The position numbers were made by a program, and so were the translations under genes. A stretch of 64,000 nucleotides of DNA from Escherichia coli. Lineage in GTDB: Bacteria; Pseudomonadota; Gammaproteobacteria; Enterobacterales; Enterobacteriaceae. The DNA lies in NCBI RefSeq assembly GCF_003334305.1, contig NZ_QOWS01000002.1. One strand, 5' to 3'. The notes below the pieces were generated by a model. That model ran no database searches and had not been told where the DNA came from. It worked only from the letters and a program-made list of their open reading frames with translations. How positions within the stretch are numbered: the stretch's first letter is position 1; each line of letters begins with the position of its first letter. Positions 63,200 through 63,238 of this stretch are shown here, piece after piece.

Positions 63200-63238
63200 A
63201 ACTAATTGGCGTTGCAGTACACACAACGCCAATTAGTT
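63200..63238. terminator. perfect 15-bp-stem palindrome at the convergent ydbL/feaR junction
   Basis: AACTAATTGGCGTTG-CAGTACACA-CAACGCCAATTAGTT; the right arm overlaps the feaR stop codon. Confidence 0.5.

Follow-up and report, generated by a model that had tools for sequence, protein, structure and literature searches.

Between the convergent genes ydbL and feaR of Escherichia coli lies a long and perfect inverted repeat that takes in the stop codon of one of them. What does this palindrome do there, and does it act as RNA, as DNA or not at all? We have addressed this question in a 64,000-nucleotide stretch of E. coli DNA, called the window below, whose first letter is position 1. The ydbL/feaR locus of this strain is about 99% identical to that of K-12, and its + strand genes ydbH-ynbE-ydbL point towards feaR, which is encoded on the - strand. 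A window coordinate equals the MG1655 coordinate minus 1,383,141, and the K-12 hairpin is located at MG1655 1446340-1446380. The element carries no annotation in MG1655 RefSeq or Rfam, and no description of it was found in the searchable literature, where a search on feaR together with ydbL returned nothing relevant. The features considered are the following.

62739..63065, + strand: ydbL, last gene of ydbH-ynbE-ydbL, with its stop 133 nt upstream of the hairpin
63066..63198, + strand: 3' untranslated spacer of ydbL
63199..63214, strandless: left arm TAACTAATTGGCGTTG, outer 9 nt AT-rich and inner 7 nt GC-rich
63208: left partner of a covarying pair; G, C or A by E. coli lineage, pairing with 63230
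63215..63223, strandless: loop CAGTACACA, 9 nt
63224..63239, strandless: right arm CAACGCCAATTAGTTA, whose final three bases are the feaR stop codon
63230: partner of 63208 on the right side of this pair; C, G or T by lineage
63237..64000, - strand: 3' part of feaR, stop at 63237-63239; the gene leaves the window at its right end
63240..63540, + strand: Rho termination zone antisense to feaR, around a published peak (PMC7815308); C exceeds G throughout

A perfect palindrome at the ydbL/feaR junction

The first-pass annotation of this DNA had described arms of 15 bp around a 9-nt loop. The loop is as described, and the arms proved to be perfect over 16 nt. It had also taken the repeat for the longest perfect palindrome of the window; in length it does rank first, a rank that it shares with another 16-nt repeat at 29386-29420. 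The coordinates bear out that the feaR stop lies within the repeat at the convergent junction (TAA on the - strand, read as TTA on the + strand at 63237-63239), and the AT-richness noted at the ends of the arms extends over their outer 9 nt. In K-12 the loop reads CAGTACATG, which lengthens the stem to 18 bp and shortens the loop to 5 nt. Such a structure lies far outside what chance would produce. In 30 shuffles of the window, no perfect inverted repeat was obtained whose arms had at least 14 nt and whose loop had at most 40 nt, and by calculation about 6e-4 perfect repeats with 16-nt arms are expected per 64 kb.

Stable folding and flanking sequences

As RNA, the 60-nt segment 63191-63250 of the window allele has folding energies of -26.7 (+ strand) and -24.4 kcal/mol (- strand). 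The corresponding K-12 segment reaches -33.0 and -27.7 kcal/mol, respectively, and is more stable because its loop extends the stem. Within a 101-nt context, the fold has a z-score of about -4 relative to dinucleotide shuffles. The stem is flanked by UGUUUU and GCGGAAUUUACG on the + strand, and by CGC and AAAACAGAUAUUUG on the - strand. Neither of the two 3' flanks contains a U-tract, and no A-tract precedes the stem on either strand. The run of four T located 5' of the stem on the + strand becomes a run of four A located 3' of it on the - strand, so that this layout is the reverse of the A-tract/U-tract arrangement of bidirectional intrinsic terminators. A scan with a terminator consensus did not call the long hairpin. 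Its sole report was a 6-bp site, and sites of this type number 1 in the real sequence versus 1.8 expected in shuffled sequence. A permissive scan of 62400-64000 with Rfam 15 gave no family at its gathering score, the hits being chance-level hairpin matches to miRNA models (21 bits versus a gathering score of 97).

Rho-dependent termination downstream of the hairpin

A Rho termination region has been reported on the + strand at MG1655 1446501, antisense to feaR, with a Rho score of 4.03 and p = 1.3e-5 (Adams et al. 2021, eLife, PMC7815308, supplementary file 2). This peak corresponds to window position 63360 and is found 121 nt past the end of the hairpin (1446380). In windows of 800 nt on its upstream and downstream sides, DirectRNA-seq reads numbered 54 and 14 without bicyclomycin versus 87 and 91 with bicyclomycin (PMC7815308). 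With Rho blocked, downstream coverage of the + strand is thus equal to upstream coverage, which means that the hairpin does not work as an efficient intrinsic terminator on transcripts coming from ydbL. The base composition was also considered. Past the hairpin on the + strand, the C/G ratio is 1.06-1.44 over the first 160 nt and rises up to 2.2 at +180 to +300 (63420-63540). On the - strand, composition gives 1.6-1.7 at +80 to +240. An excess of C over G downstream is expected for Rho loading, although antisense RNA in general shows such an excess as well.

The first-pass annotation had proposed termination as one role of the dyad, with mapped 3' ends as the check. None is listed at the dyad in the curated Term-seq lists of PMC7815308, nor anywhere in 1446000-1446499, which is a weak negative given the low expression of the locus (54 reads per 800 nt). 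The Rho region is the sole 14465xx entry in the supplements of that study, with no 3' end there, and in the supplements of TERMITe and SMRT-Cappable-seq the ydbL/feaR locus does not appear. A link of the hairpin to transcript ends is nevertheless the best-supported part of the earlier proposal, whereas its version as a classical terminator is contradicted by the missing U-tract and, on the + strand, by the Rho-dependent read-through.

One locus per genome, several alleles

Searched over the whole window with up to 2 mismatches, the arm 15-mer matched only the two arms. A 61-mer centred on the hairpin region and the 175-nt spacer were compared with 5,426 complete E. coli genomes and matched no locus beyond the ydbL/feaR junction. 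The second "place" obtained in each genome is the palindrome matching itself on the opposite strand, so that there is one locus per genome. Against plasmids, the spacer matched only chromosome-like records. The additional copies of the 15-mer for which the first-pass annotation had suggested a search thus do not exist in the window or in these E. coli genomes. A repeat family or the end of a mobile element was rejected as a candidate, since in genomes and plasmids only the ydbL/feaR locus matches. Like REP/BIME elements, which can stabilise the upstream mRNA, this one is a palindrome in a 3' intergenic region; it differs from them in being single-copy and in lacking the REP consensus.

Of the 5,426 genomes, 4,196 match the 61-mer with a coverage of at least 80% (about 4,200 match at all), and nearly all genomes carrying the locus retain the hairpin, across deep E. 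coli lineages. Four alleles were counted by exact match.

Window allele: 16-bp stem; 1,322 genomes
K-12 allele: 18-bp stem; 1,401 genomes
Allele with C→G in the right arm only: G·G mismatch; 411 genomes (about 10%), including the E. coli B strain B-ZidR
Allele with G→C in the left arm as well: C-G pair restored; 881 genomes

The changes in the last two alleles concern the pair 63208/63230 (alignment columns 244/266), which is G-C, C-G, A-T or G·G depending on the lineage. The A-T state was found in strain CFSAN061771 among ten sampled alleles that were aligned. The other core pairs hardly vary. At one other stem position a C→T change keeps a U·G pairing on the + strand RNA only, and within the 16-bp core of the sampled alleles the G·G allele is the sole change that breaks pairing. 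In a formal count, 94.6% of the cells are paired and one pair occurs as three standard types. For covariation, the score is 0.044 versus 0.021 in shuffles, with 10 of 500 shuffles reaching the observed value. The density of polymorphic sites is no lower in the hairpin (6/41) than in the remaining spacer (20/131). Taken as they stand, these comparisons of alleles provide moderate evidence that complementarity is maintained across E. coli. Template switching between the arms of quasi-palindromes is an established mutational mechanism and yields pair-preserving double changes without selection. The pairing data do not separate selection on the hairpin from arm-to-arm correction by template switching.

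Some natural isolates carry damaged versions of the locus. In strain 21319 (L018, about 2531), a 15-nt deletion corresponding to window 63221-63235 has removed most of the right arm and kept the feaR stop; of feaR, this strain retains only the 3' end, fused to what remains of paaY. In strain ETEC1739 (L010, about 1528/1529, i.e. window about 63217/63218), the loop contains a junction with the left end of an IS1 element, which starts with GGTGATGCTGCCAACTTACTGAT. ETEC1739 has lost the whole stretch from the right arm as far as pdxI, feaR and the paa region included. Strains C4, E138 and CFSAN061771 have only a 3' remnant of feaR and keep both the hairpin and an intact ydbL. In C4, the remnant is fused to a remnant of paaX. 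The feaR remnants point to deletions of the phenylethylamine/phenylacetate cluster. The annotation "helix-turn-helix domain-containing protein", seen for the remnant-feaR strains C4, E138 and CFSAN061771, is also found in EC958/ST131.

A spacer gained between two genes

The ydbL-feaR spacer of E. coli comprises 171 nt (63066-63236), of which the part from 63066 to about 63130 is also found in strains without feaR, and the part from about 63131 on is found only along with the feaR side. FeaR homologues with 69-82% identity are encoded in Pseudocitrobacter, Pluralibacter and metagenomic enterobacteria. In all of these relatives, feaR adjoins ydbL in the same convergent orientation as in E. coli, and the stop codons of the two genes abut with a spacer of 0 nt (for example TAATCA in Pseudocitrobacter). 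No hairpin was found in relatives in a scan of genome contigs and three look-ups of protein context. Lineage L003, although filed as E. coli, is a divergent Escherichia whose ydbH side shares 87% identity with K-12. Its ydbL-feaR spacer is 73 nt long and unrelated to that of E. coli. This spacer opens with a TCA immediately after the TAA of ydbL, and a second TCA further on is the present feaR stop. The L003 spacer contains no replacement hairpin, with a fold z-score of about 0.

Because the stops abut in the relatives and the L003 spacer is unrelated and unstructured, the 171-nt spacer with its hairpin is, as judged from these sequences, an acquisition of E. coli proper and not ancestral to either gene. 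Since the hairpin is absent from the relatives and from L003, it is dispensable for both ydbL and feaR. With regard to the conservation that the first-pass annotation had asked about, the dyad is conserved within E. coli, including pair-preserving changes, and is absent from the nearest genera.

Two further observations concern the left part of the spacer. In strains lacking feaR-feaB-tynA-paa (e.g. HS13-1), homology ends right after TTTTCCGGAAAC, at about 63130 and some 70 nt to the left of the hairpin. Past this point, these strains have AT-rich DNA and a gene that is very large, at about 8.3 kb, and is annotated as "EntS/YbdA MFS transporter" in one strain and as "pectate lyase-fold domain-containing protein" in another. 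The first of these annotations looks wrong for a gene of this size. Just to the right of the breakpoint, at 63133-63142, there is a perfect 10-bp palindrome, TGAATATTCA, which is lost in alleles of the E138/CFSAN061771 type that read GATGATTATTCA instead.

A candidate protector of two mRNA 3' ends

Rho-dependent transcripts have been shown to end just past stable stem-loops (Dar & Sorek 2018, NAR, PMC6061677). These stem-loops resemble terminator hairpins but have little U and no upstream A-tract, are followed by an excess of C over G, and block PNPase and RNase II. The ydbL/feaR hairpin fits the structural and contextual criteria of this class on the + strand: the stem-loop is stable, U is scarce behind it and no A-tract stands in front of it, and a documented Rho-dependent read-through region with C exceeding G lies just downstream. 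The class itself is defined by a precise steady-state 3' end a few nucleotides at most past the stem, whereas the ydbL/feaR element is provisionally placed in it by structure and context. Its stem of 16-18 perfect bp is longer than is typical for the class, and it differs also in taking in a stop codon and in being a perfect palindrome common to two convergent units.

The reading that we prefer, and to which we give about an even chance, is that the stem-loop protects the 3' ends of two convergent Rho-terminated units, ydbH-ynbE-ydbL and feaR. The palindrome would act as RNA, forming a very stable stem-loop of 16-18 bp at the 3' boundary common to both units. RNA polymerase would pass through the hairpin because no U-tract follows it. 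On the + strand, as the published data show, Rho then stops the transcript antisense to feaR, no more than a few hundred nucleotides further on. By analogy with the transcripts described by Dar & Sorek (2018), the 3'-to-5' exonucleases PNPase and RNase II would trim the transcript to the base of the hairpin, and trimming would leave a defined and protected mRNA end for the ydbL operon. Because the element is a perfect palindrome, the feaR mRNA carries the same hairpin, starting from the U of its UAA stop. By symmetry it could fill the same role there and give a like protection.

In favour of this protective role, the sampled strains in which feaR is a remnant and ydbL is intact have kept the hairpin. 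Against it, about 10% of the genomes carry the G·G mismatch allele, one strain has lost the right arm, the hairpin is absent from relatives, and its polymorphism density equals that of the rest of the spacer. Should the proposal be correct, the locus would be one more case of Rho-terminated mRNAs gaining defined and stable 3' ends, and nature would have provided a clear example of one palindrome that serves two convergent operons. It also offers a natural allelic series, namely the 18-bp stem of K-12, the 16-bp stem of the present strain, the G·G allele of B-ZidR, the compensated C-G and A-T alleles and one arm deletion. In addition, it shows a spacer with a hairpin gained between genes that have abutting stops in sister genera. 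There is no sign of a new mechanism; the element is of a known kind and the stakes are modest.

Alternative explanations

The serious rival is a palindrome without function, which came with the 171-nt spacer or arose in it and is kept perfect by template-switch correction rather than by selection. We regard this as possible, if somewhat doubtful. It is serious given the restriction to one lineage (a spacer of 0 nt in the nearest genera, an unrelated and unstructured one in L003), the mismatch allele common enough to be found in 411 genomes, and a polymorphism density that is unremarkable next to the neighbouring spacer. One natural isolate each tolerates the arm deletion and the IS1 junction in the loop. 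Moreover, the loop-proximal TG/CA change hits adjacent bases and alters the length of the palindrome. However, a functionless repeat sits less easily with its retention in nearly every genome bearing the locus, deep lineages included, with three Watson-Crick states at a single pair, with a placement exactly between two stop codons, and with a Rho zone just downstream that matches a described functional class. Alternatively, the palindrome could be a weak bidirectional intrinsic terminator, in which both strands carry the AU-rich tail AAUUAGUUA after the GC-rich inner stem GGCGUUG(CA)...(UG)CAACGCC. The weak RNA:DNA hybrid would then allow some Rho-independent release. Bidirectional intrinsic terminators have reportedly been observed at convergent gene pairs by Ju and co-workers in 2019 with SEnd-seq. 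The ydbL/feaR element resembles them in being a single hairpin between convergent genes, foldable on both transcripts, with AT-rich outer arms and a GC-rich core, and as a palindrome it supplies an identical stem and tail to both strands; a similarly built hairpin occurs at the convergent tyrR/tpx junction of the same window. What speaks against such a terminator is that the 9 bases which follow the inner stem include no more than 4 U and begin with two A, that the terminator scan passed over the long hairpin, and that the oriented A-tract and U-tract of the bidirectional type are missing, the T-run of the + strand being on the opposite, 5' side of the stem. Of the marks of a canonical intrinsic terminator, only the stable stem-loop is present; a U-tract and, on the + strand, Rho-independent termination are not, as read-through is full when Rho is inhibited (91 downstream versus 87 upstream reads). 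We therefore consider a weak terminator unlikely.

The first-pass annotation had also raised the possibility of a protein-binding dyad or a recombination site, for which we found no support. An action at the DNA level, as an operator bound by a dimeric protein, as a cruciform or as a target for recombination or transposition, appears very unlikely to us. The dyad is perfect and its symmetrical variation preserves it, and in one strain an IS1 end is joined within the loop. However, half-sites of 16-18 bp far exceed known operators in length, the element lies at gene 3' ends between two stop codons in no promoter context, the arms have no further copies in the window, E. coli genomes or plasmids, no Rfam family matches, and relatives with the same genes lack the dyad. 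Two resemblances were considered here and rejected by eye as weak. The centre of the K-12 palindrome resembles CytR octamers, a likeness lost in the window allele, and the palindrome has some similarity to the ends of IS30. Another reading concerns translation: a 19-codon open reading frame on the + strand (63177-63236), encoding MHSQISVLTNWRCSTHNAN, spans the hairpin, and the peptide or its translation could be what matters. It is open in all the alleles examined, but it has no upstream Shine-Dalgarno sequence, its amino-acid changes (W to S) track the covariation of the stem, it is not annotated in MG1655, and its coordinates do not appear in the small-ORF ribosome-profiling supplement of Stringer et al. 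(2021). This makes a coding role extremely improbable. Finally, a bolder version can be conceived, to which we attach a small probability. In it, the palindrome would be a recently acquired and actively maintained "insulator", brought in as an 18-bp hairpin within the 171-nt spacer, that uncouples the convergent units on both strands. The pair 63208/63230 would change repeatedly with complementarity kept, either by contact, for instance with a double-strand-specific RNase or another protein, or by conversion from arm to arm; or else the dyad would act as DNA, as a cruciform or a protein site.

A similar hairpin between tyrR and tpx

The other perfect 16-nt inverted repeat of the window, at 29386-29420, consists of AATATGCCTGATGGTG and CACCATCAGGCATATT separated by a 3-nt loop. 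It sits between the convergent genes tyrR (27812-29380, + strand) and tpx (29424-29930, - strand). Like the ydbL/feaR hairpin, it has perfect 16-nt arms between convergent stops, AT-rich on the outside and GC-rich on the inside, and no U-tract. It differs in its unrelated sequence, in its shorter loop, and in lying a few nucleotides from both stops and overlapping neither. On the tpx strand too, a Rho region has been reported downstream, at MG1655 1387858 (- strand), antisense to tyrR (PMC7815308). In the same data set, the Term-seq 3' end listed for MG1655 1388306 on the - strand is very strong (Adams et al. 2021, PMC7815308). As read from the listed sequence, this end is within the stop codon of tpx and precedes the hairpin by about 9 nt instead of following it.
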